Source of the DNA: an uncultured bacterium
Lineage (GTDB): Bacteria > Patescibacteriota > Saccharimonadia > Saccharimonadales > Saccharimonadaceae
NCBI GenBank assembly: GCA_938036155.1
Contig: CALHPA010000004.1
Coordinates: 5,376-69,375 of the forward strand
Length of the DNA: 64,000 nt
Direction of reading: 5' to 3'
The position numbers were made by a program, and so were the translations under genes. Below are positions 864-61,733 of the stretch, in pieces (within the stretch, counting starts at the first letter, position 1; each line of letters starts with the position of its first letter). Under the pieces are notes generated by a model. It was given only the letters and a program-made list of their open reading frames with translations, ran no database searches and was not told the origin of the DNA.

Positions 864-1466
864 ATGAAAATAAACACACAAAATACCAAAAAAACTAAAA
901 CTATTATTTTTGCTATAATTATAATTTTGCTGGTCGCTGGTGCTGGTGGAATTTTCTGGTGGGCAAATTCAAATTCTCAAAAAAATAATGAGAAAAAAGA
1001 AGAAAATATCTCAAAAGTTGAAGAGAAAAAAGAAGATTCAAAAAAATCTGAAGAAACTAAAAAACAAGAAGCTGCAAAGGAAATCATTGATTCGAAAACT
1101 AAAAATACTAATACTGACCGCGCTGAAGGAACCGTTGAATCCTCGGGCTATACAAATTTTCCAACTTATACAACTGTTCAAGTTGAAGATGGTGCGGTTC
1201 GTGTTGCTGGGCAGATTTCAGGGCTTCTTTATGATGATGGAAATGGCAAATGTTCGTATACTCTAACGCATTCTGATGGAACTAAAATTGAACTTTCAAC
1301 CGAAATTTTAGAGAGTCCAAACAATAAATATTGTAAAGCAGTTTCAAAAAAAATTAGTGATAGTGAATTTAAAACTGGAAAATGGACAGCAGTAACAACT
1401 TATAAAAATTCAAAGCAAAAGCAAGAAGGAAGGTCGGATGCTCAAAGTTTTACAATCGAGAAGTAG
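864..1466 (+). CDS. Membrane-anchored hypothetical protein with a Lys/Glu-rich linker and a small 2-Cys beta-rich domain
   Basis: 200-aa ORF with an N-terminal TM (IIFAIIIILLVAGAGGIFWW) and an SD-like AGGAGAAG upstream. No family recognised. Confidence 0.5.
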   Translation: MKINTQNTKKTKTIIFAIIIILLVAGAGGIFWWANSNSQKNNEKKEENISKVEEKKEDSKKSEETKKQEAAKEIIDSKTKNTNTDRAEGTVESSGYTNFPTYTTVQVEDGAVRVAGQISGLLYDDGNGKCSYTLTHSDGTKIELSTEILESPNNKYCKAVSKKISDSEFKTGKWTAVTTYKNSKQKQEGRSDAQSFTIEK

Positions 1467-3714
1467 AGAATTTAAAAAGTCGATTTTAATCGGTGTGCCA
1501 GTTGTGGCAGTTATTGTTTTTAGCGCTCTAGCTATATTTAGAAATCTTTCTAACGCCGTTAAAGCAACTGATTTTAATCCTGGCCGAATTATCGATGATA
1601 GTATCTTTTATAATAAAGATGCAATGAATGTGTGGCAAATCCAAAGCTTTTTAAACAAGCAAATTGGTAGTTGTGATACTTGGGGTGCTGGCCCTTCTGG
1701 ACGAAATGATGGTAGGACTGCCGCTCAATTTGCTGCTGCACAAAATTCAAATTATTGGCATAAACCTCCATATGTATGTATAAATAATTACCATGAAAAC
1801 CCAAACACTGGCGAAACTTCTTTCGAAAAAGGTGGTGAATCTTTTGATGGTGGAGTTTCGGCTGCGCAGATTATTTATGATGCAGCTCAGAAATATGGAA
1901 TTAACCCACAAGTTTTATTAGTTCTACTAAAAAAAGAATCTCTTAATTTACTAGATGATAATTGGCCAGTAAAAACTCAATATAAATATGCGATGGGCTA
2001 TGCTTGCCCAGATTCTGGACCTGGATTTTCTGCTGCTTGTGCGGATTCGAAAGCTGGTTTTTATAAACAAATGACTTTGGCAGCTTGGCAGCTAAAATAT
2101 TATAAAGACCATCATAAAGATGGTGGTTATTCGCTAAAGCTTGGATGGAATAACATTCAATATTCACCAAATCCAGCTTGTGGTACAAAACGTGTTAATA
2201 TTGAGAATGTAGCAACCTTGAGTCTATATATTTATACACCGTATGTTCCAAATAATTCAGCGCTAGCAAATTATCCGGGAACTTCACATTGTGGAGCTTA
2301 TGGAAATCGTAATTTCTTTATGTTCTTTAATCAGTTATTTGGCTCGACTATTGATGATAAGGTTGAAATTGTTAAATCTAATGTGGCTTTGCCTAAAGAT
2401 TCTTATGCAGTTTCGGCTAACTCTTCGTTAAATTTAGATATTGAAAATGGCGCAATCAACTCAAATGGTGCTCGTGTTCAAATCTATACTGCAAATAGTT
2501 CTAAAGCGCAACAATTTTCATTCGAACAGACTGGCGATGGATATTACGTTATTAGAAACTTAGGATCGGGAAAAGTTCTTGATGTGGCCGGAGGAAGGAC
2601 TATTAACGGAGTTTCAGTTCAACTTTATGATTACAATGGAACTTGTGCACAAAAGTGGGCTCTAAGCAGAAAACCTAATGGAAAGATCGAGATTCTTTCT
2701 AAGTGTAATGGAAATAAAGCATTAGATATAGTTGGCGGAAATATAAATTCTTCTGGGATTAAACTTCAACTTTATAGTAGGAATGATACACCATCTCAAG
2801 AGTTTAATATTAAATCTTTATCTCAAGGCTTAAACGGAATATTTAAGATTTCGAATTTTGTATCTAATAAGGTTGTGGGTATTAAAAGTGAAGAAGCTTC
2901 TGCTCATATTACAGATTTTATCTCAAATAGTCCAATTCAACAATTTGAGATAAAAAGATATGATGGGGTGTTTTATAAAATTAAAAGTATATCTAGTGGA
3001 AGTTTTTTGGAAATAACTGAGAATGTAAATTCTAAGCAGCTACGCTTCAATAATGATAGACAAAATTCTTGTGAACAGCTTTGGTCAATTCGTGCAGATG
3101 AAAGAGGTGCTTATAAGATTCAAAATGCTTGTTCTGGAGGTTTTGTTATAGATGTTGTTAATGGTGCTATCAATACTAATGGTTCATATCTTCAAGGTTA
3201 TAGTTCCAATAATACTGATGCACAAAGATGGAAGATTGAGGATGTTAACATTATCAAGGCTTTAGACGAACAGACATCTAATAGCGATAAAATAGAAGGT
3301 AAGTATGTAGTTTCAACCATGACTACACTAGCAATGGATATAGCTAGTGGTAGAATGACCAATGGTGCAAGTCTACAAATATACAATCAAAATAAAACAC
3401 TTGCTCAAAATTTTACTATCGAAAAAACTTCAGATGATCTTTATATCATCCGTAGCGATAATGGTAAAGTAATCGATATATCTGGTGGTAGAATATCAAA
3501 TGGTACCAAGCTTCAACTTTATGATTATAATGGTACTTGTGCTCAAAAATGGAAAATTTTAAAGAGTAATAATGGATTATATGAAATTTTATCTGCTTGT
3601 GATTCTAACAAGACTATAGATGTATCTGGGGGGATGATAGGTGTGTCAGGTACTAAGTTGCAGCTATATTCAAGAAATCAGACTCTTTCTCAACAGTGGA
3701 AATTGAAACAATAG
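1438..3714 (+). CDS. Secreted or anchored protein: a conserved N-terminal wall-hydrolase-like domain plus three ricin-type beta-trefoil lectin (CBM13-like) domains
   Basis: N-terminal TM. The motif AAQIIYDAAQKYGINPQVLLVLLKKESL resembles lytic-transglycosylase/muramidase families. Three trefoil units (about 2410-2823, 2830-3240, 3296-3711) carry QxW-type motifs (AQKWAL, AQRWKIE, AQKWKIL, SQQWKLK). Confidence 0.75.
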   Translation: MLKVLQSRSREFKKSILIGVPVVAVIVFSALAIFRNLSNAVKATDFNPGRIIDDSIFYNKDAMNVWQIQSFLNKQIGSCDTWGAGPSGRNDGRTAAQFAAAQNSNYWHKPPYVCINNYHENPNTGETSFEKGGESFDGGVSAAQIIYDAAQKYGINPQVLLVLLKKESLNLLDDNWPVKTQYKYAMGYACPDSGPGFSAACADSKAGFYKQMTLAAWQLKYYKDHHKDGGYSLKLGWNNIQYSPNPACGTKRVNIENVATLSLYIYTPYVPNNSALANYPGTSHCGAYGNRNFFMFFNQLFGSTIDDKVEIVKSNVALPKDSYAVSANSSLNLDIENGAINSNGARVQIYTANSSKAQQFSFEQTGDGYYVIRNLGSGKVLDVAGGRTINGVSVQLYDYNGTCAQKWALSRKPNGKIEILSKCNGNKALDIVGGNINSSGIKLQLYSRNDTPSQEFNIKSLSQGLNGIFKISNFVSNKVVGIKSEEASAHITDFISNSPIQQFEIKRYDGVFYKIKSISSGSFLEITENVNSKQLRFNNDRQNSCEQLWSIRADERGAYKIQNACSGGFVIDVVNGAINTNGSYLQGYSSNNTDAQRWKIEDVNIIKALDEQTSNSDKIEGKYVVSTMTTLAMDIASGRMTNGASLQIYNQNKTLAQNFTIEKTSDDLYIIRSDNGKVIDISGGRISNGTKLQLYDYNGTCAQKWKILKSNNGLYEILSACDSNKTIDVSGGMIGVSGTKLQLYSRNQTLSQQWKLKQ

Positions 3715-3787: not shown

Positions 3788-4612
3788 ATGACTAAAATGG
3801 GATTTTTTGATAAGAGAAACCGAGTCTTACTTGCTGAGCTCGTTAAAACAGATTTTAAATTAAGATACCAGGGGTCAGTTTTAGGGATTCTATGGTCAGT
3901 ATTAAAACCACTCATGATTTTTGTGGTGATGTACTTTGTTTTTGTTAAATTTTTACGAATTACTGACCCCTCAATCCCTAACTATGCAATTACGTTGCTT
4001 TTAGGACTTTCACTTTGGGCGTTCTTTACTGAGGCTGTAACACTAGGAATGACATCTATTGTTGCCCGCGGTGATTTGATGCGGAAAATTAATTTTCCAA
4101 AATATATTGTGATTCTTTCCTCGATGGTGAGTGCTTTAATCTCGCTTTCGATAAATCTTTTAGTAGTGCTAGCATTTGCAATATTTGCAGGGGTTAAGTA
4201 TCACCTAACAGTTTTGTGGCTACCTTTTAATATCATTCTGTTATTTGCAGTTGCTTTTGGTCTTGCGTTAATCTTGTCAACTCTATATGTTAAATTCCGT
4301 GATATTTCGCATATTTGGGAAGTTTTTATGCAGATTCTGGTATATTCAATGCCGATTATGTATCCAATTTCAATGGTATCAAAAGTCTCAATTTTTGGCG
4401 TATCAGTTGCGAAATTAATAATGCTTAATCCGATAGCATTAGTAATTCAGGATATTCGCCATAATTTAATCGCACCAGAAACGCCAACTTTCTGGACATT
4501 ATTCCAAAATCATTTGATTGCAATAATTCCAATCTCAATAGCAATATTTTTAGTTTTTTTCGGGCTTTGGTATTTTAACAAAAATTCAAAGAAATTTGCG
4601 GAGATTATGTAA
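3788..4612 (+). CDS. ABC-2 type polysaccharide/teichoic-acid export permease (Wzm/TagG-like)
   Basis: 274 aa with six predicted TM segments. The N-terminus (DFKLRYQGSVLGILWSVLKPL) is typical of ABC-2 permeases. TAATG overlap with the downstream ATPase. Confidence 0.85.
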   Translation: MTKMGFFDKRNRVLLAELVKTDFKLRYQGSVLGILWSVLKPLMIFVVMYFVFVKFLRITDPSIPNYAITLLLGLSLWAFFTEAVTLGMTSIVARGDLMRKINFPKYIVILSSMVSALISLSINLLVVLAFAIFAGVKYHLTVLWLPFNIILLFAVAFGLALILSTLYVKFRDISHIWEVFMQILVYSMPIMYPISMVSKVSIFGVSVAKLIMLNPIALVIQDIRHNLIAPETPTFWTLFQNHLIAIIPISIAIFLVFFGLWYFNKNSKKFAEIM

Positions 4613-5811
4613 TGGGAAAATACGCTTTAGAAGTGAAACATGTTTCGAAAAGTTTTCGTTTGCCGACAGAACAGGCGAGCGGTATTAAACAGGCTTTTGT
4701 AAACTGGACAAAAGGAATTAAAGGTTATAAAGAGCAACAGGTATTAAAAGATATTTCATTTAAAGTTGAAAAGGGCGATTTTTTTGGTATTGTTGGAAGA
4801 AATGGCTCAGGAAAATCAACTCTCTTAAAAATTATTTCACAAATTTATACTCCTGAAAAAGGAACTGTAAAAGTTAATGGGACGCTAATTCCATTTATTG
4901 AACTTGGTGTTGGATTTAATCCAGAACTTACTGGCCGTGAAAATATTTATCTCAATGGTGCACTTTTAGGTTTTTCGAAAGACGAGGTTTCGGCAATGTA
5001 TAATGAAATTGTGGAATTTGCTGAGCTTAAAGAATTCATGGATCAAAAACTAAAGAATTACTCTAGCGGAATGCAAGTCCGTTTGGCTTTTTCGATTGCA
5101 ATTAAAGCTCAGGGTGATATCCTGGTTCTAGATGAAGTCTTGGCGGTTGGTGATGAAGCTTTTCAACGAAAATGTGATGAATTCTTCTCAAAAATTAAAA
5201 AAGATAAGACTAAAACTGTTATTCTTGTGACACACTCTATGTCTTCTGTGCGTAGATATTGTAATAGGGCTATCATGATTAATCAAGGTGAAGTCGCTTC
5301 TCTTGGAAGTATCGATGAAGTTGTTGAAGCTTATACTCAATTAAATCTTGAAAAACTTGGAAAGAAAGAGTCTGAAACTCAAGAGGTCCTTGGCTTGAAT
5401 GATGAACTAACCAAATTAAAGATTAATGCAATTAGTAAAAAAATCGTATCAAATAAAGAGAATTTTGAATTTGAGGTAGAGTATAATTATATAGGTAAGA
5501 AAAAAATCTTTCTTGCAGTAGCTATGTTTGATCAAACTCGTGGTGGAATTGTCTACGATTCGAGCCAAGTTTATGTTGATTGTGGCGACCAAAAGGTAAG
5601 GTTTTCAATTCCAATGGAATTATTTAATAGTAGTGAGTTTAAGCTTACTGCTTCAATTCGAGATACTAATAAAAAATTGAGTGGTAATGAAAACTTAATT
5701 GGCTTTACGAATGATGAAAATTCCTTAATTTTTAAGCTTTCAAACAAAAAAGAAATTTCAGATTATGCATTGCTCAATAGTGAGGTTTTTAGGGTTGAAA
5801 GGATTAAATAA
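4612..5811 (+). CDS. Polysaccharide export ABC ATPase (Wzt/TagH-like) with a C-terminal extension domain
   Basis: Walker A GRNGSGKST, signature YSSGMQVRL and Walker B ILVLDE, plus an extra C-terminal domain of about 150 aa as in Wzt-type ATPases. Confidence 0.9.
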   Translation: MGKYALEVKHVSKSFRLPTEQASGIKQAFVNWTKGIKGYKEQQVLKDISFKVEKGDFFGIVGRNGSGKSTLLKIISQIYTPEKGTVKVNGTLIPFIELGVGFNPELTGRENIYLNGALLGFSKDEVSAMYNEIVEFAELKEFMDQKLKNYSSGMQVRLAFSIAIKAQGDILVLDEVLAVGDEAFQRKCDEFFSKIKKDKTKTVILVTHSMSSVRRYCNRAIMINQGEVASLGSIDEVVEAYTQLNLEKLGKKESETQEVLGLNDELTKLKINAISKKIVSNKENFEFEVEYNYIGKKKIFLAVAMFDQTRGGIVYDSSQVYVDCGDQKVRFSIPMELFNSSEFKLTASIRDTNKKLSGNENLIGFTNDENSLIFKLSNKKEISDYALLNSEVFRVERIK

Positions 5812-46952: not shown

Positions 46953-47028
46953 TGGTAGGGGATGCTGGGTTCGAACCAGCGACCAATCGTGTATGAGACG
47001 ACTGCTCTAACCGCTGAGCTAATCCCCC
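46953..47028 (-). tRNA. tRNA with CAT anticodon, probably tRNA-Ile2 (lysidine-modified), CCA encoded
   Basis: Hand fold: GGGGGAT..anticodon loop CTCATAC..variable TGGTC, T-stem GCTGG/CCAGC. The anticodon, variable and T regions resemble E. coli tRNA-Ile2 as I recall it. Distinguishing Met from Ile2 is inference. Confidence 0.8.
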
Positions 47029-47068
47029 GACTATTTAATTATATCAGAAAATGTGATAAAATTAAATA

Positions 47069-47509
47069 GTGAAATTAAACTTAAACGATTTAAAAACTAA
47101 AACTCGCCGTGCGAAATATTATTTTTCGAACGATATTTTGACTTTGAGTAATATTATTATGGCCAGTGTGATTTTTATTTCGATAATTTGGGTTTGGGGA
47201 AATATTGCGGCGATGGAGAAAAATTATTCAATTCAAAAAAAGATCGAACTCAAACAGCGCCAAGCTTTAATTGATGAAATTAGCTATAAAACACTCGAAT
47301 ATGAACAAAAATATCTGAAAAGCTCTGAATACCAAGAGCTTGCCGTGCGCGAAAAACTTGGTCTTGCGATGCCAGGTGAACATGTTTTGATTCTTTCGAA
47401 ATACCCAGAAGAACAAAAGAAAGAGCAAGCTGAAATTTCGAAACCTTCAAACTTTACGCAATGGATTAACTTTATTTTTGGTGGAAATGCCCAAAAATCA
47501 ATAAAATAG
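47069..47509 (+). CDS. FtsB/DivIC-like septum formation initiator
   Basis: One TM segment, a coiled coil and the motif REKLGLAMPGEHV typical of the family. GTG start 6 nt after an extended -10 box (TGATAAAAT, 47054-47062). Confidence 0.6.
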   Translation: MKLNLNDLKTKTRRAKYYFSNDILTLSNIIMASVIFISIIWVWGNIAAMEKNYSIQKKIELKQRQALIDEISYKTLEYEQKYLKSSEYQELAVREKLGLAMPGEHVLILSKYPEEQKKEQAEISKPSNFTQWINFIFGGNAQKSIK

Positions 47510-47519
47510 TTAAAATCCC

Positions 47520-47548
47520 TTGACTTTTAAATATCCGCGTGATAAAAT
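47520..47548 (+). promoter_or_regulatory. Promoter of initiator tRNA
   Basis: TTGACT, a 17-nt spacer, then TAAAAT. It ends 13 nt before the mature tRNA 5' end. Confidence 0.6.
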
Positions 47549-47561
47549 ATAAAACAGATAT

Positions 47562-47639
47562 CGCGGGATGGAGCAGTCTGGTCAGCTCGCTTGGCTCATA
47601 ACCAAGAGGTCGTAGGTTCAAATCCTACTCCCGCAACCA
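47562..47639 (+). tRNA. Initiator tRNA-fMet (CAT), CCA encoded
   Basis: CGCGGGATGGAGCAG.. with the C1xA72 mismatch and a strong resemblance to the E. coli tRNA-fMet acceptor and T arm. The anticodon stem is CTTGG/CCAAG rather than 3 G-C pairs. Confidence 0.85.
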
Positions 47640-47749
47640 AGAAATTATTTCGAAAAATAACTTTTCAAAAAATGAAAGGTTATTTTTATTTATGAAAAAT
47701 AAAATTTAAAAATCGTTACAGAATTTGCAACGATTTTTTATATAATTTC

Positions 47750-47826
47750 TGGTAGTAGCGGCAGGGATTGAACCTGCGACCTTAGGCTTATGAGTCCTAC
47801 GCTCTAACCAACTGAGCTACGCTACC
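47750..47826 (-). tRNA. tRNA with CAT anticodon, probably elongator tRNA-Met, CCA encoded
   Basis: Hand fold: GGTAGCG TA GCTCAGTTGGTTAGAGC..CTCATAA..GCAGGTTCAATCCCTGC CGCTACT A CCA. Confidence 0.8.
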
Positions 47827-47900
47827 ACAATGTTTATATTTTAGCATATTGAAAAACTTTTTTCAAGAGAAAAGCCCGCAAAATTTGCGAGCTTTATTTT

Positions 47901-54045: not shown

Positions 54046-54789
54046 ATGAATATTACACCACGACAAACGCAAATTTTGGTAGCAATCATTGAGCAATACG
54101 CTGAAGTTGCCAGCCCTGTTGGAAGTGTGACTTTAGCAAAGCTTTTTGGTGTTTCAAGTGCAACAATTCGTTCTGAAATGGCAAAACTTGAAGACTTAGG
54201 GCTAATTACGCAACCGCACACTTCTGCTGGGCGAATTCCAACTGATAAAGGTTATCGATTTTATGTGAATCGCTTAACTGCTCAAAGTGAGGGTGAAGAT
54301 GAACAAATTTTGCTAAACGCTAATAATTCGAAAGATAGTTTGCGTGGATTTCGGGCGATTTCATCACGGGTTTCAGCTCAGAATGACCGCGCTGACCATG
54401 CAATTCGTTCAGCAGTAGATTCTTTAGTTGAGCTTACAGGCAATCTTGGTCTTGCTACAATTGGCGATCAGCTCTATATTAATGGAATTTATAATCTTTT
54501 TTCTCAACCTGAATTTGAAAGTGGCGAAGCGGTGCAGTCGGTTGCGCAACTGCTTGATAATCTTGAACCGTGGCTTCGTGAAGTTACTCCAAATGAGCCG
54601 CTTAACGTTTATATCGGTAGTGAAAATCCAATTGGCAAAAGTTCTGGCGCGAGTTTGATAATTTCGAAATTCGAAAGTCCATTTTCAGAAAATTCTTACA
54701 TTGGCGTGCTCGGGCCAACTCGCCAAAATTACGGAAAAGTGGTGCGATTGGTTCAAAAAACCGGTGAATTTTTAGAAGAGATTTTATAA
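54046..54789 (+). CDS. hrcA: Heat-inducible transcription repressor HrcA (short form, 247 aa)
   Basis: RQTQILVAIIEQYAEVASPVGSVTLAKLFGVSSATIRSEMAKLEDLGLITQPHTSAGRIPTDKGYRFYV. The C-terminal GVLGPTRQNYGKV matches HrcA. Confidence 0.9.
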   Translation: MNITPRQTQILVAIIEQYAEVASPVGSVTLAKLFGVSSATIRSEMAKLEDLGLITQPHTSAGRIPTDKGYRFYVNRLTAQSEGEDEQILLNANNSKDSLRGFRAISSRVSAQNDRADHAIRSAVDSLVELTGNLGLATIGDQLYINGIYNLFSQPEFESGEAVQSVAQLLDNLEPWLREVTPNEPLNVYIGSENPIGKSSGASLIISKFESPFSENSYIGVLGPTRQNYGKVVRLVQKTGEFLEEIL

Positions 54790-54804: not shown

Positions 54805-55332
54805 ATGGAAGAAAATAATGTAGCAAAAAATCAAGATAATACAAAAGAAAAGAAGCAATCAGGATTTTTTAAAAAAGATCCAAAGTGCGAAAAGCTTCAA
54901 GCAGAGAATTCAGAATTAAAAAATGATTTGCAGCGCACGCGTGCTGATTTTGAGAATTATCGTAAAAATGTTGAAAGTCGAATTTCGAATGCGCAAAATC
55001 TAGGCGAAAAGAAAGCTATTTTGGCGTTAATTCCAATGATTGATGATATTGAAAGAGCGATTTCGCATTTGCCGTCGGATCTAGCGGAAAATTCTTGGGC
55101 GCAAAATGTGGTTAAAATGAGCAAAAATTTGGAAAAAAATCTTTCAAAGCTTGGAGTTGAAAAGATCAATTCTTCGAACGGTGCCATTTTTAATCCAGAA
55201 CTTCATGAGGCGATTCAATTCGATGAAGAATCTGACGGTGAAGAAGAAGTTATTGCTGAAGAACTTCGAGCTGGTTATACTTTAAAGGGCGAAGTTTTGC
55301 GAGCAGCAATGGTAAAAGTTGGGCGAAAGTAA
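54805..55332 (+). CDS. grpE: Nucleotide exchange factor GrpE
   Basis: RTRADFENYRKN, the GrpE C-terminal beta domain (FNPELHEA..G..L..GEVLRAAMV) and SD AAGGAGGA. Confidence 0.93.
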   Translation: MEENNVAKNQDNTKEKKQSGFFKKDPKCEKLQAENSELKNDLQRTRADFENYRKNVESRISNAQNLGEKKAILALIPMIDDIERAISHLPSDLAENSWAQNVVKMSKNLEKNLSKLGVEKINSSNGAIFNPELHEAIQFDEESDGEEEVIAEELRAGYTLKGEVLRAAMVKVGRK

Positions 55333-55375: not shown

Positions 55376-55513
55376 CGTTAACCCGTTTCACCTTACTATA
55401 GAAGGTTGGGACTCGCGGGTTATCCTAATAATAAATAGAAATTAGAGTCAGTATTTTTCTTTTTCTTGGAGGAGCTTTATTCTCGCTAAGCCGTCTAATA
55501 TTAGGCGGTTTTT
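55376..55513 (+). ncRNA. Candidate small RNA or leader: an orphan promoter-to-terminator unit
   Basis: Promoter TTGACA(55341-46)-17-TATTAT(55364-69). A nested stem follows (TAACCCG 55379-85 / CGGGTTA 55416-22 enclosing ACCTT/AAGGT), then a terminator hairpin CCGTCTA/TAGGCGG plus a T-run (55491-55513). There is no SD+ATG ORF inside. Confidence 0.4.
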
Positions 55514-55561
55514 AATTTTAAAAACTTTAAAATTAAGCATAAATATGATAAAATATAACGT

Positions 55562-57919
55562 ATGAATAGTGGGCAAAATCTTAAAAATATTAAAAAGTTT
55601 ATTCGTGTAGCGAATTATTTGACTGTTTCGCAAATCTTCTTGCAAGATAATTTTCTATTGGAGCGTCCACTAACTTCTGAAGATATTAAACCTCGGCTTC
55701 TTGGCCACTGGGGAAGTTGCCCAGGTGTTAATCATGTTTATGCACATCTTTTAAATATTCAAAAACAGCTGGATTTTGCTAAAAGTGGTTTAAAAACAGC
55801 ATTTATGCTTGGTCCAGGTCATGCTTTTCCGGCGCTCCAGGCGAATCTTTTTCTTGAAGAAACTCTTTCGAATATCGATAAGAATGCGATTCGGAATTCG
55901 CAAGGTATTGCTTATATTTCGAAAAACTTTTCTTGGCCAGGCGGTTTTCCGTCGCACGCGAGTCCTTTCACGCCAGGCGTGATTCTTGAAGGTGGGGAGC
56001 TCGGCTATTCGCTTTCGACTGCTTTCGGGGCGGTTTTAGATAATCCAAATCTTGTAATGACCACTTTAATCGGCGATGGCGAGGCTGAAACTGGCCCAAT
56101 TGCTGCAGCTTGGCATCTGAATAAACTGATAAATCCAGTTAAAAATGGAGTAGTTTTACCTGTTTTACATTTGAATGGTTATAAAATTTCTGGTCCGACA
56201 ATTTTTGGCTCGATGAGTGATTTTGAATTGATTCAATTTTTCCACGGAGCGGGTTGGGAGCCAAAAATCGTTGATGAATATTCTGCTGAAGATTTTGATT
56301 TAGAGCTTTCGAAAGTTTTTTCAGATGCTTTTCGAGATATTTCGCGAATAAAATTTGGCCGAAAAAACGGTTTTGTGCGGCTGCCGATGATTATTATGCG
56401 GAGTAAAAAAGGAAGCTCCGGTGTTACTGAAAATAATGGCGAAAAAATTGAAGGGAACTCGCTCGCTCATCAAGTTCCACTTTTAAACGCTAAAAGTGAT
56501 GGAAAAGAGCTCAAAAAACTCGAAGATTGGTTAAAATCTTATAAATTTGAAGAGCTTTTTGATTTCGAAAAAGGTGAATTCAAACCTTGGCTTAATGATT
56601 TTTTACCAGAAAAATCAAGCAGAATTGGTCAAAATTGTTTCGTAGATGCAAATTTAAATTTTAAAGAATTAAAATTACCAGAAATTCATGAAAGAGTAGG
56701 CGAGAAATCACTTGCAATGAATGCAATTGGTGATTTTTTGAAAGAAGTTTTCGAAAAAAATCCAGAAATTTTCCGCTTCTTTAGTCCTGATGAAACTTAT
56801 TCAAATAAATTAGATGCTATTTTTAAAGTAACTTCACGTTCTTGGCAGCGAGAAATTAAGCCATGGGAAAAAGATTTATCGAAAAACGGCCGTGTTACGG
56901 AAATTTTGAGTGAACATTCTTTACAGGGGCTTTTGCAGGGTTATATTTTAACGGGGCGACATGGAATTTTGACTTCTTACGAAGCTTTTGCGCCGATTAT
57001 TTCTTCAATGATGGATCAATATGCTAAGTTCTTGGCCCAATCTAAAGAAGTAAAATGGCGAGGTGATTTAGCAAGTTTAAACTATGTTTTAACTTCAACT
57101 GGTTGGCGACAAGACCATAATGGATTTTCGCATCAAAATCCGAGTTTTATTGATGAAGTTTTGCGCCGCGAAAATGGAATTGGGCAGATTTTTTTGCCAG
57201 CAGATGATAATTCGGCTGTTGTAGCGATTTCAAAAATGCTAAAATCCCAAAATAATATTAACGTTTTGGTTGCGGGAAAAACGCCTGAGCCAAGGTATTT
57301 TTCTCTTAAGAGCGCACAAAAGCAGATTAAAAATGGCGGAATATTTGTTTTTGACAGTTGGAAAAATCAGGAAATTACAGACTGGGACTCAATTTTAGAA
57401 GATGATGAGCCAGATTTAATTTTGGCGGCAAGTGGTGATTATGTTTTTAAAGAAACAGTTGCAGCACTTCAGGTTTTGCTTCATGACGCACCGCAAATTA
57501 AAATTCGTTTAGTTTATATTCAGGCGCTATGTAGTGAAGGAATTGGAACTTTCGAAAATACACTTTCGAAAAGCGATTTCGCGAAGATTTTTACTAAAGA
57601 TAAGCCAGTTATATTTGCTTTTCATGGTTATGCTAAAACTTTGAAATCAATTTTATTTGATTATGAAAATCCGTCGAGAATTAAAATTAACGGATATGAA
57701 GAAAAAGGTTCAACAACTACGCCGTTTGATATGCTTGCGAGAAATCGAGTTTCGCGATACGATATTGTGGCTCGAGCGGTCGCTTCGAAAAATCCTGAAA
57801 AGGCTGAAGAATATTTGGCGAGAAAAGAAGACTTGCTGAAATTCGCCCGCGAAAACTCCGTCGACGCTCCAGAGATTGAGAATTGGAAATATTTATCTTT
57901 TTATGGTAAAATGGAATAG
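55562..57919 (+). CDS. xfp: Xylulose-5-phosphate/fructose-6-phosphate phosphoketolase
   Basis: 785 aa. LLGHWGSCPG, EGGELGYSL and GDGEAETGP signatures. An extended -10 (TGATAAAAT, 55546-55554) lies 7 nt before the ATG. Confidence 0.95.
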   Translation: MNSGQNLKNIKKFIRVANYLTVSQIFLQDNFLLERPLTSEDIKPRLLGHWGSCPGVNHVYAHLLNIQKQLDFAKSGLKTAFMLGPGHAFPALQANLFLEETLSNIDKNAIRNSQGIAYISKNFSWPGGFPSHASPFTPGVILEGGELGYSLSTAFGAVLDNPNLVMTTLIGDGEAETGPIAAAWHLNKLINPVKNGVVLPVLHLNGYKISGPTIFGSMSDFELIQFFHGAGWEPKIVDEYSAEDFDLELSKVFSDAFRDISRIKFGRKNGFVRLPMIIMRSKKGSSGVTENNGEKIEGNSLAHQVPLLNAKSDGKELKKLEDWLKSYKFEELFDFEKGEFKPWLNDFLPEKSSRIGQNCFVDANLNFKELKLPEIHERVGEKSLAMNAIGDFLKEVFEKNPEIFRFFSPDETYSNKLDAIFKVTSRSWQREIKPWEKDLSKNGRVTEILSEHSLQGLLQGYILTGRHGILTSYEAFAPIISSMMDQYAKFLAQSKEVKWRGDLASLNYVLTSTGWRQDHNGFSHQNPSFIDEVLRRENGIGQIFLPADDNSAVVAISKMLKSQNNINVLVAGKTPEPRYFSLKSAQKQIKNGGIFVFDSWKNQEITDWDSILEDDEPDLILAASGDYVFKETVAALQVLLHDAPQIKIRLVYIQALCSEGIGTFENTLSKSDFAKIFTKDKPVIFAFHGYAKTLKSILFDYENPSRIKINGYEEKGSTTTPFDMLARNRVSRYDIVARAVASKNPEKAEEYLARKEDLLKFARENSVDAPEIENWKYLSFYGKME

Positions 57920-57947
57920 TTATAAACTTTAACAGAAGGAGGACTAT

Positions 57948-58196
57948 ATGGGATTTTTATGGTCACTTATAGTTGGAGGATTTATCGGTGCTATTGCTGG
58001 TTATATCCTTAATAAAGACAAGAAAATGGGAATCGTAGCTAATGTTTTGGCTGGACTCGTCGGATCATTTGTTGGGCAATCTTTATTTGGTAGCTTCGGT
58101 CCAAAATTGGCAGACATGGCAATTATTCCATCATTGATTGGTGCGATTATCGTTATTAGTGTAGTATCATTTGTGCTTAAAAAGGGAGAAAAATAA
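57948..58196 (+). CDS. GlsB/YeaQ/YmgE family stress membrane protein
   Basis: MGFLWSLIVGGFIGAIAGYI...VLAGLVGSFVGQSLFG. SD GAAGGAGG. Confidence 0.85.
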   Translation: MGFLWSLIVGGFIGAIAGYILNKDKKMGIVANVLAGLVGSFVGQSLFGSFGPKLADMAIIPSLIGAIIVISVVSFVLKKGEK

Positions 58197-58197
58197 T

Positions 58198-58407
58198 ATG
58201 TCAGAAAATAAACTCGATGCTGTAGTAGATAAAGTTGTTGGCGCTACAAAAGAAGTCGCTGGAAAGGTTACGGGCAACAAAAAATTACAGGCTGAAGGCA
58301 AAACTCAGAAAGCTGGAGGAAAAGTCAAAGAAGTTGCTGCCGATACTAAAGATATTGTTGACGGAGTGGTCGACGGCGCAAAAGAAGTTCTAGGCAAGAA
58401 AAAATAG
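58198..58407 (+). CDS. CsbD-family general stress protein
   Basis: KVVGATKEVAGKVTGNKKLQAEGKTQKAGGKVKE. I chose ATG 58198, which follows AAGGGAGAA. Confidence 0.85.
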   Translation: MSENKLDAVVDKVVGATKEVAGKVTGNKKLQAEGKTQKAGGKVKEVAADTKDIVDGVVDGAKEVLGKKK

Positions 58408-58484
58408 AACAATATAAAATAATAGCCTCATCGTTGAGACTATTATTTTTAGAAAAAAGAAAACCCCGAGCTTTATACTCGGGG

Positions 58485-58499
58485 AAACCAGATTAGTTT
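58485..58499. repeat. Left arm of the inverted repeat flanking the GC-rich island (AAACCAGATTAGTTT)
   Basis: Its reverse complement matches 59253-59267 (AAACTAATCTGATTT) at 14 of 15 positions. The 11-nt core CAGATTAGTTT is perfect. Confidence 0.55.
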
Positions 58500-58582
58500 T
58501 TTAGGAAGTTAAAGATAAAGTCCTCAACTTCCTGGTGGTCGGGGTATCCGCCCCAAAAGGCGGATTCCCTATGTTTACCAAG

Positions 58583-59125
58583 TCAGGAGCCACCGTTCCA
58601 GCCTTGGAATTTCTCTTGGAGATATGAACAGAGCTCACCATCCCTAAAGAAATTAACTTCTCCTTCGCCAGAGAGTACGATCAATTGATCGTACTCTCTA
58701 AAGAGACGGTCGGTTACTGTAGCCGTCCTGCTGTGCGTAAGACTAACTACAGTGAGGCGACCGTCAACCTTGCGGCTTTCGATCACCTCAACAGCCTAAG
58801 CTTCCTGCTCAGGCTACAACCATCCCCGGGATAAACCCGGAGTCGTTCGCAGCGATCAAAAGCTGCTTACGACTGGGCTCAATCCTCAATAGGGAAAGAA
58901 CCTGGATGATTGAGGCTGGTTCGCCGGAGCGACTACCGTGGTGGTCCACGTCAATCGCGCCGGCAATTTCGCTGGCACCAGCCAGTTCAATAAGAACTGG
59001 CTGGTCGCCTGCAGCTAGAGCAGCATCGATCTCATCTTTATAAGATTCGACCGATGCGCCCCAGCCCAGACCTTCATCTCCGCGTCTGCTCCACCAATAA
59101 AAAATACTTTTTGTGCTTGTGTCAT
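58583..59125 (-). pseudogene. Disrupted gene of foreign (GC-rich) composition, function unknown
   Basis: ATG 59125 has an AGAGGA SD. The sensible reading needs two frame changes, near 59075 and 58815, and contains an in-frame TAG (58797-58799). The pieces are MTQAQKVFFIGGADA / GLGWGASVESYKDEIDAALAAGDQPVLIELAG..IDVDHHGSRSGEP..AANDSGFIPGM / VIESRKVDGRLTVVSLTH..QGWNGGS. Local GC reaches about 65% in 58921-58980, against about 35% in the flanks. Confidence 0.6.
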
Positions 59126-59190
59126 TTTTAGTTCCTCTATTGCCGTCGGTGAGTCGTTGCTCATCTTCCGATTCGGTGAGAACTTCTGGA

Positions 59191-59242
59191 TGTTAGCCAG
59201 AAACCAAACCGTCTCGACCAATGACCTGATTTCTGGCTAACA
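59191..59242. repeat. Perfect 13-bp inverted repeat TGTTAGCCAGAAA / TTTCTGGCTAACA with a 26-nt spacer
   Basis: Read directly from the sequence. It lies upstream of the pseudogene start, inside the island. Confidence 0.55.
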
Positions 59243-59252
59243 ACCGCCACAT

Positions 59253-59267
59253 AAACTAATCTGATTT
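59253..59267. repeat. Right arm of the inverted repeat flanking the GC-rich island
   Basis: AAACTAATCTGATTT. See the left arm at 58485-58499. Confidence 0.55.
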
Positions 59268-59504
59268 GAAATGTTCGATCCGTTTTGGCAAAATCTTGCT
59301 TTTGCTTGACGGATTATTTAAATTATAACCATAATTATAATAATAAGTTAATAATTTTGCTTAAAAAAGTTAAAAATTCTCAAAATTACCACTGTTATTT
59401 TCGAAAAAGATTTTTTATGATTTTCTGGAAAAATTCAATTTTTATATAATATTATGCCGATAATTCAAGAATAAATAAAAACAATCGTTGTAAATAAAAC
59501 ATCA

Positions 59505-59531
59505 TTAGCACTCTTGACTTGTGAGTGCTAA
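59505..59531 (+). promoter_or_regulatory. CIRCE operator overlapping the dnaK promoter
   Basis: Perfect TTAGCACTC-N9-GAGTGCTAA. The spacer holds the -35 TTGACT (59514-19), and the -10 TATAAT lies at 59537-42. A leader of about 150 nt precedes dnaK. Confidence 0.92.
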
Positions 59532-59696
59532 AAGCGTATAATCGAAATATAAGCGTGAAACGAATTGCGAGGCGCGCTTTATAGAATAGTTAATAACTTT
59601 CGGGAAGCTTTCTGAAAAATCCGAATAGGCTAAGAAATTCGAAATTGACTAGGAAAGCTATCGAACAGATAAATTTAATAAAGAAAGAAGGAGAAA

Positions 59697-61595
59697 ATGG
59701 GAAAAATTATTGGAATTGACCTTGGTACAACTAACAGTGCTTTTGCATATATGGTTGCAGGAAAACCTGAGGTTATCACAAACGCAGAAGGAAATCGAAC
59801 TACGCCATCAGTTGTGGCAATCAACAAAAAAGGCGATCGCTTGGTTGGGCAGGTAGCGCAACGTCAACGCGTAACAAATCCGAAAAATACAATTTACGGA
59901 GTAAAGCGTTTGATTGGCCGAAAATATTCTGATGATGAGATTCAAAAAGATCTTGAAATTATGCCTTACGAGATTGTGAAAAAAGGTAGTGGCGTGGCTG
60001 TAAAAATGGGTGACAAAGAATATACGCCAGAAGAAGTTTCAGCAATGATTCTTTCGAAAATTAAAGCTGATGCTGAAGCTTTCTTGGGTGAAAAAGTTAC
60101 CGAAGCTGTGATTACTGTTCCAGCTTACTTTGATGACAGTCAACGCCAAGCAACTAAAGATGCTGGTAAAATTGCTGGTCTTGAAGTAAAACGAATTATC
60201 AACGAGCCAACTGCAGCCGCACTTGCTTATGGCTTAGACGGTAAAAAAGATGAAAAAATTGCTGTTTTCGACCTTGGTGGTGGGACATTCGACGTTTCGA
60301 TTCTCGATATTGCGGATGGAGTTTTCGAAGTTCTTTCAACAAACGGTGATACACATCTTGGTGGTGAAGACTTTGATAACCGCATTGTGAACCACTTCTT
60401 GGATGAATTTAAGAAAGAAGAAGGAATCGATCTTAAAAATGATTCTGCCGCAATGCAACGCTTAAAGGATGAAGCTGAAAAGGCTAAGAAAGAGCTTTCT
60501 TCAACAACATCTTATGAAGTGAACTTGCCATTCTTAACAGCTGATGAAGATGGTCCAAAACACTTTGAATATACTCTAACCCGAGCAAAACTTGAAGAAT
60601 TAGTTGCTGATTTAATTGATCGACTAGCTGATCCTGTTGAAAAGGCTCTAAAAGATGCAGATCTAAAAGCTAGCGATATCGCCGAAGTTGTGATGGTTGG
60701 TGGTATGACCCGAATGCCAGCCGTGGTTGAAAAAGTAGAAAAAATCTTTGGCAAAAAGCCAACTCAAGGTGTTAACCCTGATGAAGTTGTGGCTGTGGGT
60801 GCTGCAATTCAAGGCGGTGTTTTGGCTGGAGACGTTAAAGATGTGCTACTTCTTGACGTTACGCCTTTAACACTTGGAATCGAAACTGCTGGTGGTGTTC
60901 GAACTCCAATGATTGATCGAAACACAACTGTGCCAACTTCGAAATCGCAAGTTTTCTCAACTTATGCCGATAATCAGTCGCAAGTTGAAATTCATGTGCT
61001 TCAAGGTGAGCGCGAAATGGCTGCCGACAACAAATCTCTTGGAATGTTCGTACTTTCAGGAATTGCTCCAGCGCCACGAGGAGTTCCACAGATTGAAGTT
61101 ACCTTCAATATTGATGCAAACGGAATTTTGACAGTTACCGCTAAAGATAAAGGAACTGGTAAAGAGAACAATATCACAATTCAAAACTCAGGAAATATGA
61201 GTAAAGAAGATATTGAAAAGGCTCAAAAAGAGGCTGAACTTCACGCTGATGAAGATAAAAAGAAACGCGAATTAATTGATGCGAAAAATCAGCTCGAAAA
61301 TGCTATTTATCAGGCAGAAAAAATGCCAAGCGAATTCAAAGATAAGATTTCGAAAGAAGATGAAGAAGCAATTTCGAAAGCTGTTGAAGAGGCTAAAAAA
61401 CATCAAAATGCTGAGAGTAAAGATGAGCTTGAGAAAGCTGCTAAAGATCTTCAAGATGCAATTATGCCAATTGGTGCAAAATTGTATCAAGCTCAAAGTG
61501 CAGATAATGCAAGTGAAGCTGGCGATAAAGCTAAAACTTCTCACAAAAAAGATAATGACGAGCCAGTTGAAGGCGAAGTTATTGACAAGAAATAA
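59697..61595 (+). CDS. dnaK: Chaperone DnaK (Hsp70)
   Basis: [23 protein letters not shown] and VGGMTRMP. 632 aa. SD GAAGGAGAA. Confidence 0.98.
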
Positions 61596-61621
61596 TTCGA
61601 AAATCCACCTTTCGAAAAGTA

Positions 61622-61651
61622 AAAATGCTCAGGTTAAACTGGGCATTTTTT
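61622..61651 (+). terminator. dnaK terminator
   Basis: AAAATGCTCAG-GTTAAA-CTGGGCATTTTTT. Confidence 0.7.
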
Positions 61652-61733
61652 GCGTATTGATTTTTTAAATTTTATTTAATATAATTAATTGGCGCTCACC
61701 CGATGCTCGCACTTTTAGAAAGAGGTATTTTCT

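Follow-up and report, generated by a model that had tools for sequence, protein, structure and literature searches.

The island of high GC content between csbD and dnaK in the window (the whole 64-kb stretch of DNA analysed here) is the transcription unit of a standalone nrn-like gene, which encodes a DHH phosphodiesterase of the NrN family and has decayed into a pseudogene. The high GC content of the region is due to a conserved RNA structure that takes up the whole message; this base-paired message, and not an origin in a host, accounts for the island. Tiling of the message with hairpins characterizes one large branch of the family in CPR bacteria and gut MAGs, where it gives GC islands the size of a single gene. 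The source organism is a human oral Saccharibacterium near Candidatus Nanogingivalis. Taken jointly, these statements, which cover the NrN-type pseudogene, its decay, the structured message, and the branch-wide trait, are very probably correct.

Composition and Organization of the Island

An initial annotation of this DNA had described a jump in composition, which our measurements bore out. The segment at 58500-59250 contains 50.7% GC, the top value in the window, against a window mean of 34.9% (SD 3.4%, 750-nt windows), and 39 of the 60 bases at 58921-58980 are G or C, exactly as counted before. The features of the region are listed in Table 1. Between the PKT (phosphoketolase) gene and dnaK, the variable segment holds Transgly_assoc, csbD, the nrn pseudogene with its leader, and the promoter. 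The minus-strand terminator proposed earlier was confirmed (58464-58484, followed by a T-run). A motif check also upheld the observation that TTCGAA, an over-represented motif of this genome, does not occur in the island; it is absent from 57785-59399, that is, from the whole variable stretch.

Table 1: Features of the GC-rich island and its surroundings (positions in the window).
Feature	Position	Strand	Basis or remark
Variable segment, PKT gene to dnaK	57920..59430	.	Other genes here in relatives
Promoter-like site (TTAACT, 18-nt spacer, TATAAT)	59322..59351	-	Consensus match only
Leader hairpin 1, 5' end of transcript	59277..59314	-	Predicted fold
Closing helix, 5' arm, in leader (right repeat of the initial annotation)	59253..59267	-	Identical in all aligned alleles and lineages
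Leader hairpin 2 (internal inverted repeat of the initial annotation)	59187..59244	-	Stem of about 21 bp
Leader hairpin 3	59129..59183	-	Pairs Shine-Dalgarno with upstream UUCUC
Pseudogene, standalone NrN-family DHH phosphodiesterase	58493..59125	-	tblastn and DNA alignment to intact allele P0001/L001
49-bp deletion junction	59074/59073	-	ORF positions 53-101; shifts frame; removes most of first ORF hairpin
Perfect 12-bp stem with 5-nt loop, in ORF	58977..59005	-	Loop inverted in L175 and L177; removed whole by 48-bp deletion (L010-type)
65-bp deletion junction	58814/58813	-	ORF positions 362-426; window-type allele only (window, L173, L180, L181)
Premature stop, CAG to TAG	58796-58798	-	Alignment to intact allele
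Perfect 30-bp palindrome in ORF	58670..58699	-	Encodes EYDQLIVLS on both strands; one of the 16 ORF hairpins
Second premature stop, GGA to TGA	58583-58585	-	Alignment to intact allele; absent from the initial annotation
Closing helix, 3' arm (left repeat of the initial annotation)	58485..58499	-	Overlaps natural stop
Intrinsic terminator of the nrn pseudogene	58454..58484	-	Sequence kept in L001, L004, and L007

Identity of the Gene Product

A profile of 47 family members matched the PDB entries of NrN, 9LQ9-9LQC (chains 9lq9_A, 9lqa_A, and 9lqc_A), with E values of 5e-49 to 1e-47; the match covered profile positions 3-204, and the C-terminal 45 residues lay outside it. The AlphaFold2 model of the intact protein P0001 (pLDDT 95.8) was compared with known structures and matched 9LQB with a TM score of 0.80, 30% identity, and an E value of 3e-21, the next-best matches being other DHH enzymes with TM scores of at most 0.57. 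E16, H78, H79, and D111 were invariant in the 47 sequences and D77 nearly so, and D14 of the N-terminal GGxDxEM motif was invariant as well. E16, the DHH motif, and D111 align with E21, DHH (D85/H86/H87 in B. fragilis), and D119 of NrN, E21 and D119 being the residues mutated in the NrN crystal structures. In the window copy, the catalytic codons survive in a broken frame. NrN is a DHH phosphodiesterase that degrades SAM-AMP, the signal of CorA-type III CRISPR systems (Chi et al., Nature 2023, PMC10600005). As judged from the sequence profile and the structure model, the product of the gene is a standalone homologue of this enzyme, and the substrate of the CPR enzymes is putative.

The likeness to NrN, which belongs to a CorA-associated type III-B CRISPR system of Bacteroides fragilis (9LQ9, 9LQA, 9LQB, and 9LQC), includes family, fold, and the catalytic motifs GGxDxEM, DHH, and AND. 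The NrN-CorA fusion found on Arcobacter plasmids also matches the family; the plasmid matches consisted of three such Arcobacter records, annotated as CorA, and one hypothetical protein. Unlike NrN, the present gene stands alone. Neither cas10 nor corA was found near it in the window or in the CPR loci, ten large ORFs of unclear function in the window gave no Pfam match to CorA or Cas proteins, no neighbour was conserved in the CPR or gut loci, and a Cas10-like neighbour, judged by eye, was seen at only 7 non-CPR loci. Because an association with CRISPR or CorA was lacking, we regard the gene as a standalone homologue and not as a CRISPR accessory gene. The message differs too: in the present subfamily it is GC-rich and hyper-structured, whereas in the CRISPR-linked members it is not.

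The frame-corrected protein matched nothing in Pfam or NCBIfam, and literature searches on PDB 9LQ9, on NrN in CPR bacteria or Saccharibacteria, and on structured GC-rich coding regions found no precedent. The family comprises 1,234 clusters at 50% identity, described as "hypothetical protein" and carrying no Pfam domain. This widespread protein can now be named as a homologue, outside CRISPR loci, of the enzyme that turns the SAM-AMP signal off.

Lesions and Allele Series

Lesions were defined by aligning the window copy to the intact allele P0001/L001, in which the gene is 747 nt long and encodes 248 aa. The minus-strand ORF starting with the ATG at 59125-59123, which the initial annotation had pointed out, is real. 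Two frameshifts had been placed near 59075 and 58815; the frame is indeed disrupted at both points, but the events are deletions of 49 bp and 65 bp. Together they remove 114 bp, and the original frame is therefore regained after the second deletion. The in-frame TAG likewise exists, one base away from the position first assigned to it (58797-58799). The gene continues past the second premature stop to its natural stop, a TAA at 58493-58495. As the ORF extends this far, the GC-rich 3' hairpins described earlier, which are present, lie in coding sequence.

The 49-bp deletion sits between the direct repeats GATGAAGG and GATGCAGG. It is common to all pseudogene alleles (L010, L172-L175, L177-L181, and a contig of run X2) and is the founding lesion. 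The alleles form a series: the gene is intact in L001, L170, L171, and L176; the 49-bp deletion occurs by itself in L179, with the loop inversion in L175 and L177, with a 48-bp deletion in L010, L172, L174, L178, and run X2, and with the 65-bp deletion and the two stops in the window, L173, L180, and L181. In the window lineage, decay began with the 49-bp deletion, followed by the 65-bp deletion, the two stops, and substitutions that were mostly from GC to AT.

The evidence on alleles comes from assembled contigs of other runs. The window allele was found identical over 856 nt in contigs of at least two other samples (L180 and L181), and about ten further contigs carry the 49-bp deletion. The samples with the same allele are independent human oral metagenomes, and sister strains are intact or differently deleted at the same site. 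The lesions thus recur in independent contigs and are nested, with four intact alleles at the same locus. The deletions, the stops, and the intact copies at this site bear out the earlier view of a decaying gene. It might be argued, as a general possibility only, that the frameshifts and stops are assembly or sequencing errors in a gene that is really intact. However, the lesions are deletions of tens of base pairs and base substitutions, not homopolymer slips, and the identical allele appears in the contigs of other samples, with nested alleles in many more; the probability of such errors is practically nil. The allele series from oral samples represents stepwise gene loss, with deletions that map on the gene's own hairpins.

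Structure of the ORF Message

The predicted fold of the intact ORF (747 nt) comprises 16 hairpins with 274 conserved base pairs, and about 73% of the message is paired. Compared with dinucleotide shuffles, the z-score was -19.0 for the intact ORF and -16.1 for the window transcript. Synonymous-codon shuffles gave z-scores of -15 to -20, against +0.2 to -3.7 for eight control gene segments. In an alignment of five intact ORFs, 95.9% of cells were paired, versus 33-44% with slid partners. The count of compensatory pairs, which compared only three deep lineages, gave 22, versus 0-4 with slid partners and 9.9 ± 2.2 after shuffling, and none of 500 shuffles reached 22. Among mismatches flanked by Watson-Crick pairs, the ratio of G·U to A·C was 27:7 in the clade and 53:11 in distant structured members, and 14:13 in unstructured members. 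The sense strand folded better than the antisense strand (-355 kcal/mol) by 46 kcal/mol. The message thus shows the marks of a structured RNA, namely folding energy beyond that of matched controls and covariation that keeps its pairs. About 200 pairs were shared within the clade versus 4-50 with distant members; hairpin positions are only partly conserved and drift between lineages. When the whole window was searched with Rfam covariance models, only tRNAs exceeded the gathering score, and chance-level matches alone were obtained in the island at E ≤ 1.

Each deletion coincides with predicted hairpins. The 49-bp deletion removes one hairpin (ORF 43-101), and the 48-bp deletion (ORF 166-213) removes another (166-201), whereas the 65-bp deletion covers the hairpin at 372-409 together with parts of two neighbouring helices. 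Hairpins formed at the DNA level may promote slippage between short direct repeats, and the loss of the gene through hairpin-removing deletions could be attributed to such slippage. The substitutions of the pseudogene alleles break 15 of 27 stem positions, which is no more often than young polymorphisms of the intact alleles break stems, and this comparison gave no sign of relaxed selection on the structure.

Leader Hairpins and Closing Helix

The internal inverted repeat reported in the initial annotation exists, with arms at 59188-59206 and 59227-59245, and forms leader hairpin 2. A G-C pair of this hairpin is replaced by A-U in L007 and by G·U in L010, with a G·U intermediate in run X5. The inner helix of leader hairpin 3 changes between lineages from TGAG/CTCA to ACCG/CGGT to GCG/CGU, and the Shine-Dalgarno sequence that this hairpin pairs is GGAGGAA in intact alleles and AGAGGAA in the window. 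The leader contains 5 further compensatory pairs, and the ribosome-binding-site hairpin covaries.

The 15-nt inverted repeats of the initial annotation are present with one mismatch, but the variable segment extends beyond them. The mismatch becomes a G·U pair in the minus-strand RNA, and the two arms pair in both the MFE fold and the centroid fold of the window transcript and, with pair probabilities of 0.74-1.0, in the intact L001 transcript. This closing helix shows no covariation because its arms never vary, and no 5'-3' closing helix was found in the other structured members outside this clade. The earlier suggestion that the repeats are the ends of a mobile element does not hold, since homology with other genomes passes both of them, reaching about 58447 on one side and at least 59428 on the other, and they pair in RNA. 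A search for further copies in the 64 kb returned the two arms and one match with 2 mismatches at 16741. We also considered a MITE-like element and rejected it: homology with L004 spans 58447 to beyond 59579, so that the repeats are not at the segment ends, and there is a single pair in the window. The region resembles MITEs and integron cassettes in that a pair of 15-nt inverted repeats flanks a short segment at a variable locus. It differs from them in its variable edges, which do not coincide with the repeats, in the pairing of the repeats in RNA, and in having neither other copies within 64 kb nor a visible target-site duplication or attC-like site.

GC Content and Folding across the Family

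The gene exceeded its flanks in GC content at 91% of 149 loci, and at 36 loci of unrelated genomes the rise amounted to 10-24 points and was confined to the ORF. GC excess was correlated with extra folding energy (r = -0.69). Of 99 family ORFs taken from CPR and gut bacteria, about half showed extra folding, and the structured members group together in the tree. The closest outside relatives, L011 and L090, are GC-rich genes in AT-rich flanks.

Third codon positions of nrn have a GC content (GC3) of 0.51-0.55 across lineages, whereas that of flanking genes falls to 0.26-0.28, and these positions have diverged to 60-70% identity across the same lineages. The identities at codon positions 1, 2, and 3 were 0.88, 0.88, and 0.60, respectively, a clear three-base periodicity. 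Sister strains carry an intact gene with an equally high GC content at this site, and so does a more distant lineage, whose synonymous sites are near saturation relative to the window.

Comparison of the csbD-dnaK interval between relatives, as proposed in the initial annotation, revealed a variable segment: relatives with about 91% PKT identity have a GmrSD-type gene or two unknown ORFs in place of nrn, and homology to genomes without nrn resumes at 59428-59488. The replacement genes at this hot spot have a native GC content of 31-33%. The presence of nrn among Nanogingivalis lineages is patchy, and the locus is mosaic, as L007 has a PKT gene like that of L002 (93% nt) and a Transgly_assoc gene 95% identical to that of the window. 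A metagenome scan found no relative above 65% identity. Routine phage carriage was not supported, with no phage match and one IMG/VR match.

Alternative Explanations of the Island

The initial annotation had attributed the island to a high-GC donor, such as an actinobacterial host, and regarded it as a non-autonomous element bounded by the 15-nt repeats and now decaying. The striking composition, the differences in the PKT-dnaK segment between related genomes, the absence of TTCGAA, and the confinement of the repeat pair to this place in the window all agree with such a cassette. The proposed donor does not: none of the best 120 protein matches listed and none of the 160 related loci carried an Actinobacteria label. 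They came from CPR bacteria, which are the nearest relatives, from gut "Alphaproteobacteria" MAGs, and from other bacteria. The repeats fail as boundaries in the ways described above, one of them even overlapping the stop codon, and the equally GC-rich intact orthologues at this site, together with the GC rise confined to the ORF in 36 unrelated genomes, argue against recent acquisition from elsewhere as the reason for the high GC content. This explanation is largely refuted and retains a very slight probability. A related proposal is that a recombination hot spot repeatedly received the gene from CPR donors of higher GC content, the GC excess being no more than a compositional relic and the folding a by-product. 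The patchy distribution, the mosaic locus, and the GC-rich genes of L011 and L090 in AT-rich flanks would fit it. We consider it very unlikely, as shuffles that preserve GC, codon usage, and dinucleotides still gave z-scores of -15 to -19, 22 compensatory pairs were found, and the sense strand alone shows the G·U bias; moreover, GC3 is held well above that of the flanks despite the divergence at third positions, and the alternative genes at the hot spot are not GC-rich.

Two further explanations accept the hairpins and differ on where they act. Hairpins that arise or act in DNA, as cruciforms, in single-stranded DNA, or as quasi-palindromes perfected by template switching, could produce the perfect palindromes of 30 and 12 bp; instability of hairpins in DNA typically leads to events such as the inversion of the 5-nt loop and the hairpin-removing deletions, and the antisense strand has a strong fold as well. 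This is unlikely to replace selection on RNA, given that the sense strand folds better, that G·U exceeds A·C about 4-5:1 within Watson-Crick-defined helices in structured members only, and that every change from G-C to G·U, whether in the leader or in the ORF, is compatible with the minus-strand RNA. The transcript itself might instead be functional, as a decoy, scaffold, or nuclease sponge, with coding secondary, so that the RNA may outlive breakage of the ORF. The broken window transcript keeps its strong fold and an intact closing helix, the deletions take whole hairpins while the other predicted hairpins remain, and in two runs, which are guessed to be RNA, this fragment was the only part of a 6.2-kb region present in assembled contigs. 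The three-base periodicity, the invariant catalytic residues, the drift of hairpin positions, which speaks against one specific fold, and the stem positions broken in the pseudogene point the other way, and we hold this possibility to be unlikely.

Possible Role of the Structured Message

In the predicted fold, the message contains 16 ORF hairpins, a 15-bp helix from the leader to the stop, and three hairpins in the leader, the third of which pairs the ribosome-binding site. Such a structure might protect the message from nucleases and prolong its life, and pairing of the ribosome-binding site might gate its translation; this role is a guess, to which we give somewhat less than an even chance. 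A little more tentatively, we propose that a large branch of standalone NrN-like genes in CPR bacteria and small-genome gut bacteria has a message paired nearly from end to end and kept so by selection on the sense RNA. If this is true, these genes constitute an unrecognised kind of protein-coding RNA, self-protected or stored against single-strand nucleases or RNA-guided targeting; single-gene GC islands in AT-rich genomes can mark selection for RNA structure on an ORF, and the same structure makes the gene prone to hairpin-removing deletions. If the structure controls lifetime or translation, it would also be a natural extreme example of the structure that a translated bacterial mRNA tolerates. 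A heat-shock thermometer, with dnaK as the neighbour, was considered and rejected, as the hairpins are too stable to melt physiologically and relatives lie in unrelated contexts.

When the GC content of an AT-rich genome rises locally, foreign DNA or a noncoding RNA is the usual interpretation; the present island is an ordinary-looking enzyme gene with a paired message. Structured noncoding RNAs stand out in AT-rich genomes in the search of GC-rich intergenic regions by the Breaker laboratory (PMC11109978). The present gene shares with those RNAs a sharp GC island that results from base-paired RNA, but the island is a protein-coding ORF and has no Rfam match. Among messages, that of hok, from the hok/sok type I toxin-antitoxin system, encodes a short toxin and is subject to antisense RNA and 3' processing. 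Its compact fold, long life, 5'-3' closing pairing, and sequestered ribosome-binding site resemble what is predicted for the present gene, in which, by contrast, structure tiles a 747-nt enzyme ORF and which is not known to involve antisense RNA, processing, or toxicity. The genomes of the RNA phages MS2 and Qbeta and the Obelisks are coding RNA replicons with genome-wide secondary structure. They too are mostly paired protein-coding RNAs with extreme folding z-scores; unlike them, the present gene is chromosomal DNA with a terminator and a putative promoter, and its message folds into successive local hairpins and a few closing helices in place of a rod.

Identity of the Gene

The GC content at 58500-59250 was 50.7%, compared with a window mean of 34.9% (SD 3.4%, 750-nt windows), and was the maximum of the window; at 58921-58980, 39 of 60 bases were G or C. 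The minus strand carries an ORF starting from the ATG at 59125, and its protein can be read only with frame changes. This island and its broken ORF had been reported in the initial annotation, together with the inverted repeats, the internal repeat, the terminator, and the lack of TTCGAA within the island, all of which were found again. The in-frame TAG was also present, but one base away from the position first assigned, and a second stop codon had been missed. Hairpins previously placed in a 3' region are coding sequence, because the gene continues to its natural TAA. The observations were confirmed, and the interpretation was supported in part.

Positions of features of the nrn gene in the window
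Feature	Position	Remark
Promoter-like site of nrn	59351-59322	minus strand
15-nt inverted repeats	58485-58499 and 59253-59267	
Internal inverted repeat	59188-59206 and 59227-59245	arms
Terminator	58464-58484	plus T-run
Premature stop TAG	58796-58798	minus-strand ORF
Second stop codon TGA	58583-58585	minus-strand ORF
Natural stop TAA	58493-58495	

The frame-corrected protein had no match in Pfam or NCBIfam. It matched 151 proteins of ~245-300 aa, nearly all unnamed; the named ones came from CPR bacteria and 'Alphaproteobacteria' MAGs. A profile of 47 family members matched the NrN chains in the PDB (9LQ9, 9LQA/B, 9LQC) with an E of 5e-49. The AlphaFold2 model of P0001, the intact protein from contig L001, had a pLDDT of 95.8 and superposed on 9LQB ("NrN E21A in complex with SAH-AMP") at a TM of 0.80, and the NrN catalytic residues were invariant across the family. 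An Arcobacter plasmid NrN-CorA fusion among the matches confirmed the assignment. NrN is a DHH phosphodiesterase that specifically degrades the second messenger SAM-AMP, and its gene adjoins CorA in some type III-B CRISPR loci (PMC10600005). In contrast, the CPR and gut members were standalone. Neighbour analysis of 80 loci revealed no conserved partner gene, a Cas10-like neighbour (judged by eye) occurred at only 7 loci, all non-CPR, and of ten large ORFs in the window whose function is unclear, none matched CorA or Cas. The family comprised 1,234 clusters at 50% identity (E <= 1e-3; 1.84 billion representatives searched) and was almost absent from phage collections. The gene represents a new, standalone variant within the NrN family.

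Intact and Decayed Alleles

Contig L001, from the same species and with flanks ~99% identical, has the gene in intact form (248 aa) at this site. Compared with L001, the window shows deletions of 49 bp (junction between 59074 and 59073) and 65 bp (junction between 58814 and 58813), the codon changes CAG to TAG and GGA to TGA, and roughly a dozen more substitutions (GC to AT in 9 of 12). Ten more human oral metagenome contigs were obtained by lookup of the window's Transgly_assoc protein, and the aligned oral contigs formed a nested allele series. L001, L170, L171, and L176 were intact; L179 had the 49-bp deletion alone; L175 and L177 combined it with a 5-nt loop inversion; L010, L172, L174, L178, and one contig of public run X2 combined it with a 48-bp deletion; and the window, L173, L180, and L181 had the 49-bp and 65-bp deletions and both stops. 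Since L173 is probably the window's own source contig, the window's exact allele was counted in two other samples, which excludes sequencing error as the cause of the lesions. The gene is therefore decaying, as first proposed, alongside intact copies.

The 49-bp (ORF positions 53-101) and 48-bp (166-213) deletions each took out one hairpin between short direct repeats, and the 65-bp deletion took out the hairpin at 372-409 and portions of its neighbours. Hairpins at the DNA level may have given rise to these deletions by slippage. One perfect 12-bp hairpin within the ORF has the 5-nt loop TTATT (equivalent to window 58989-58993); L175 and L177 have the reverse complement, AATAA, in place of this loop, a hairpin-mediated loop inversion.

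Variability of the Locus and Origin of the GC Richness

The island had been attributed to a cassette from a high-GC donor, with an actinobacterial host as candidate, bounded by terminal repeats. However, no Actinobacteria label appeared among the protein matches listed or the related loci, and the 15-nt repeats match neither edge of homology: homology to genomes without nrn resumes at 59428-59488, and that to L004 is continuous from 58447 into dnaK. The variable segment spans 57920 to ~59430. The more distant contigs L002-L004 (genome ~46% GC; phosphoketolase, PKT, 77% aa identity) carry PKT, nrn, and dnaK without csbD and Transgly_assoc, and L007 carries all four genes. The locus is mosaic, the PKT of L007 being 93% identical (nt) to that of L002 and its Transgly_assoc 95% identical to the window's. 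In lineages at 91% PKT identity, one of them named Candidatus Nanogingivalis sp., a GmrSD_N gene or two unknown ORFs, of native GC (31-33%), replace nrn. These edges, the variability of the site, and the mosaicism support the view of nrn as an accessory gene at a hot spot of recombination, but not that of an actinobacterial cassette with terminal inverted repeats.

Among the related Nanogingivalis genomes, L182-L184 have a GmrSD_N gene (605 aa; type IV restriction-like) between PKT and dnaK (7749-9566 in L182), and L185 has two ORFs there (4056-5694), of 324 and 223 aa, neither of which matched Pfam; the gap thus behaves like a small hot spot of accessory genes, some of them of a defence type. 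In L172 (1-1148), RecT and a PDDEXK/FtsK-like protein lie upstream of PKT, replacing hrcA-grpE, which suggests a mobile element or prophage beside the locus. A stretch without TTCGAA (57785-59399; 1,616 nt) matches the variable segment almost exactly; it is among the longest in the window (longest, 1,794 nt). No other palindromic hexamer of the window comes near TTCGAA in over-representation (196 in 64 kb against ~21 expected, 9.2-fold; extended form T-TTCGAA-A). The motif occurs in all three reading frames and intergenically at a median spacing of 256 nt, and may be an uptake-type or methylation-linked signal.

The GC content is linked to folding of the message. The intact gene has 53-55% GC and a GC3 of 0.51-0.55 (neighbour genes, 0.26-0.28 or ~0.50, by lineage), and third positions were just 60-70% identical between lineages with the intact gene. 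Gene GC exceeded flank GC at 91% of 149 family loci, and at 36 non-redundant loci the excess was 10-24 points and ended at the ORF edges. Against synonymous-codon shuffles, which left protein and codon usage unchanged, the L001 ORF had an MFE of -401 kcal/mol versus -265; z was -17 for L001, -20 for L004, and -15 for L007, -2 to -14 for distant members, and +0.2 to -3.7 for eight control gene segments. Relative to dinucleotide shuffles, the intact ORF had a z of -19.0, and the broken transcript of the window one of -16.1. Extra folding energy correlated with GC excess (r = -0.69). On the minus strand of the window, the region was the strongest folding outlier along with a tRNA cluster. This other strong outlier is at 47501-47900; three genes for tRNA-Met, alternating in strand, are found within 900 nt at 46953-47826. 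As far as we searched the literature, message-wide hairpin tiling producing single-gene GC islands has not been described.

Conserved Structure of the Message

RNAalifold predicted 274 pairs in 22 helices (16 hairpins and a few closing helices) from five intact ORFs. Cells were paired in 95.9% of cases, versus 33-44% with partners slid by 1-3 columns, and there were 22 compensatory pairs, versus 0-4 slid and 9.9 ± 2.2 shuffled (0 of 500 shuffles reached 22). The sense strand folded better than the antisense by 46 kcal/mol. When helices were defined from Watson-Crick pairs only, the ratio of G·U to A·C among single mismatches was 27:7 within this gene's clade and 53:11 for structured members that are distant, compared with 14:13 for unstructured members. 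Within the clade, ~200 of 267 pairs were at homologous positions; 4-50 were shared with distant members, versus ~1 in shifted controls, and the best-preserved hairpins were at SGFIPG, SAQGITPEQ, and FQGWNGGSGLG. In the protein tree, structured members grouped in a single large branch, made up of CPR and gut MAGs, and CRISPR-linked and basal members were unstructured. The predicted sense-strand structure is conserved.

The promoter-like site implies a leader of ~190 nt, which was 91-99% identical between lineages whose coding sequences were 73-83% identical. It forms three predicted hairpins with five compensatory pairs; the second changes from G-C to G·U (L010, run X5) to A-U (L007), and in the third the Shine-Dalgarno sequence pairs with UUCUC. 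In the intact 977-nt transcript (MFE -498.7 kcal/mol), the 15-nt repeats pair with one another (probability 0.74-1.0), enclosing the remaining leader and the entire ORF, and their sole mismatch becomes a G·U pair on RNA. Both the MFE fold and the centroid fold of the window transcript contain this helix as well. It was not found outside the clade, and it lacks covariation because its sequence never varies. Through (TTA)n-like slippage, the spacer between -35 and -10 measures 11 nt in L001, 18 nt in the window, and 20 nt in L004, so promoter strength may differ between strains.

We tentatively suggest, with rather less than even confidence, that the hairpin-packed structure would yield a long-lived, nuclease-resistant message gated at its ribosome-binding site. 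The nearest known parallel is presumably hok mRNA. In X1 and X2, public runs guessed to be RNA (library type uncertain; assembled contigs only), the only contigs from the 6.2-kb PKT-to-dnaK stretch at 55500-61700 were nrn pseudogene fragments at 58873-59146 (k-mer depth 27 in X2), a weak hint that would fit unusually abundant or stable nrn RNA.

Other Features of the Neighbourhood

PKT and the variable segment separate dnaK from grpE (54805-55332), which follows hrcA (54046-54789). Upstream of dnaK, a perfect CIRCE operator (TTAGCACTC-N9-GAGTGCTAA; 59505-59531) overlaps a near-consensus promoter (TTGACT, 17-nt spacer, TATAAT; 59514-59542). A long cell-envelope and glycosyltransferase cluster is headed by a 758-aa protein (1438-3714) in which a ricin-type beta-trefoil lectin repeat occurs six times.
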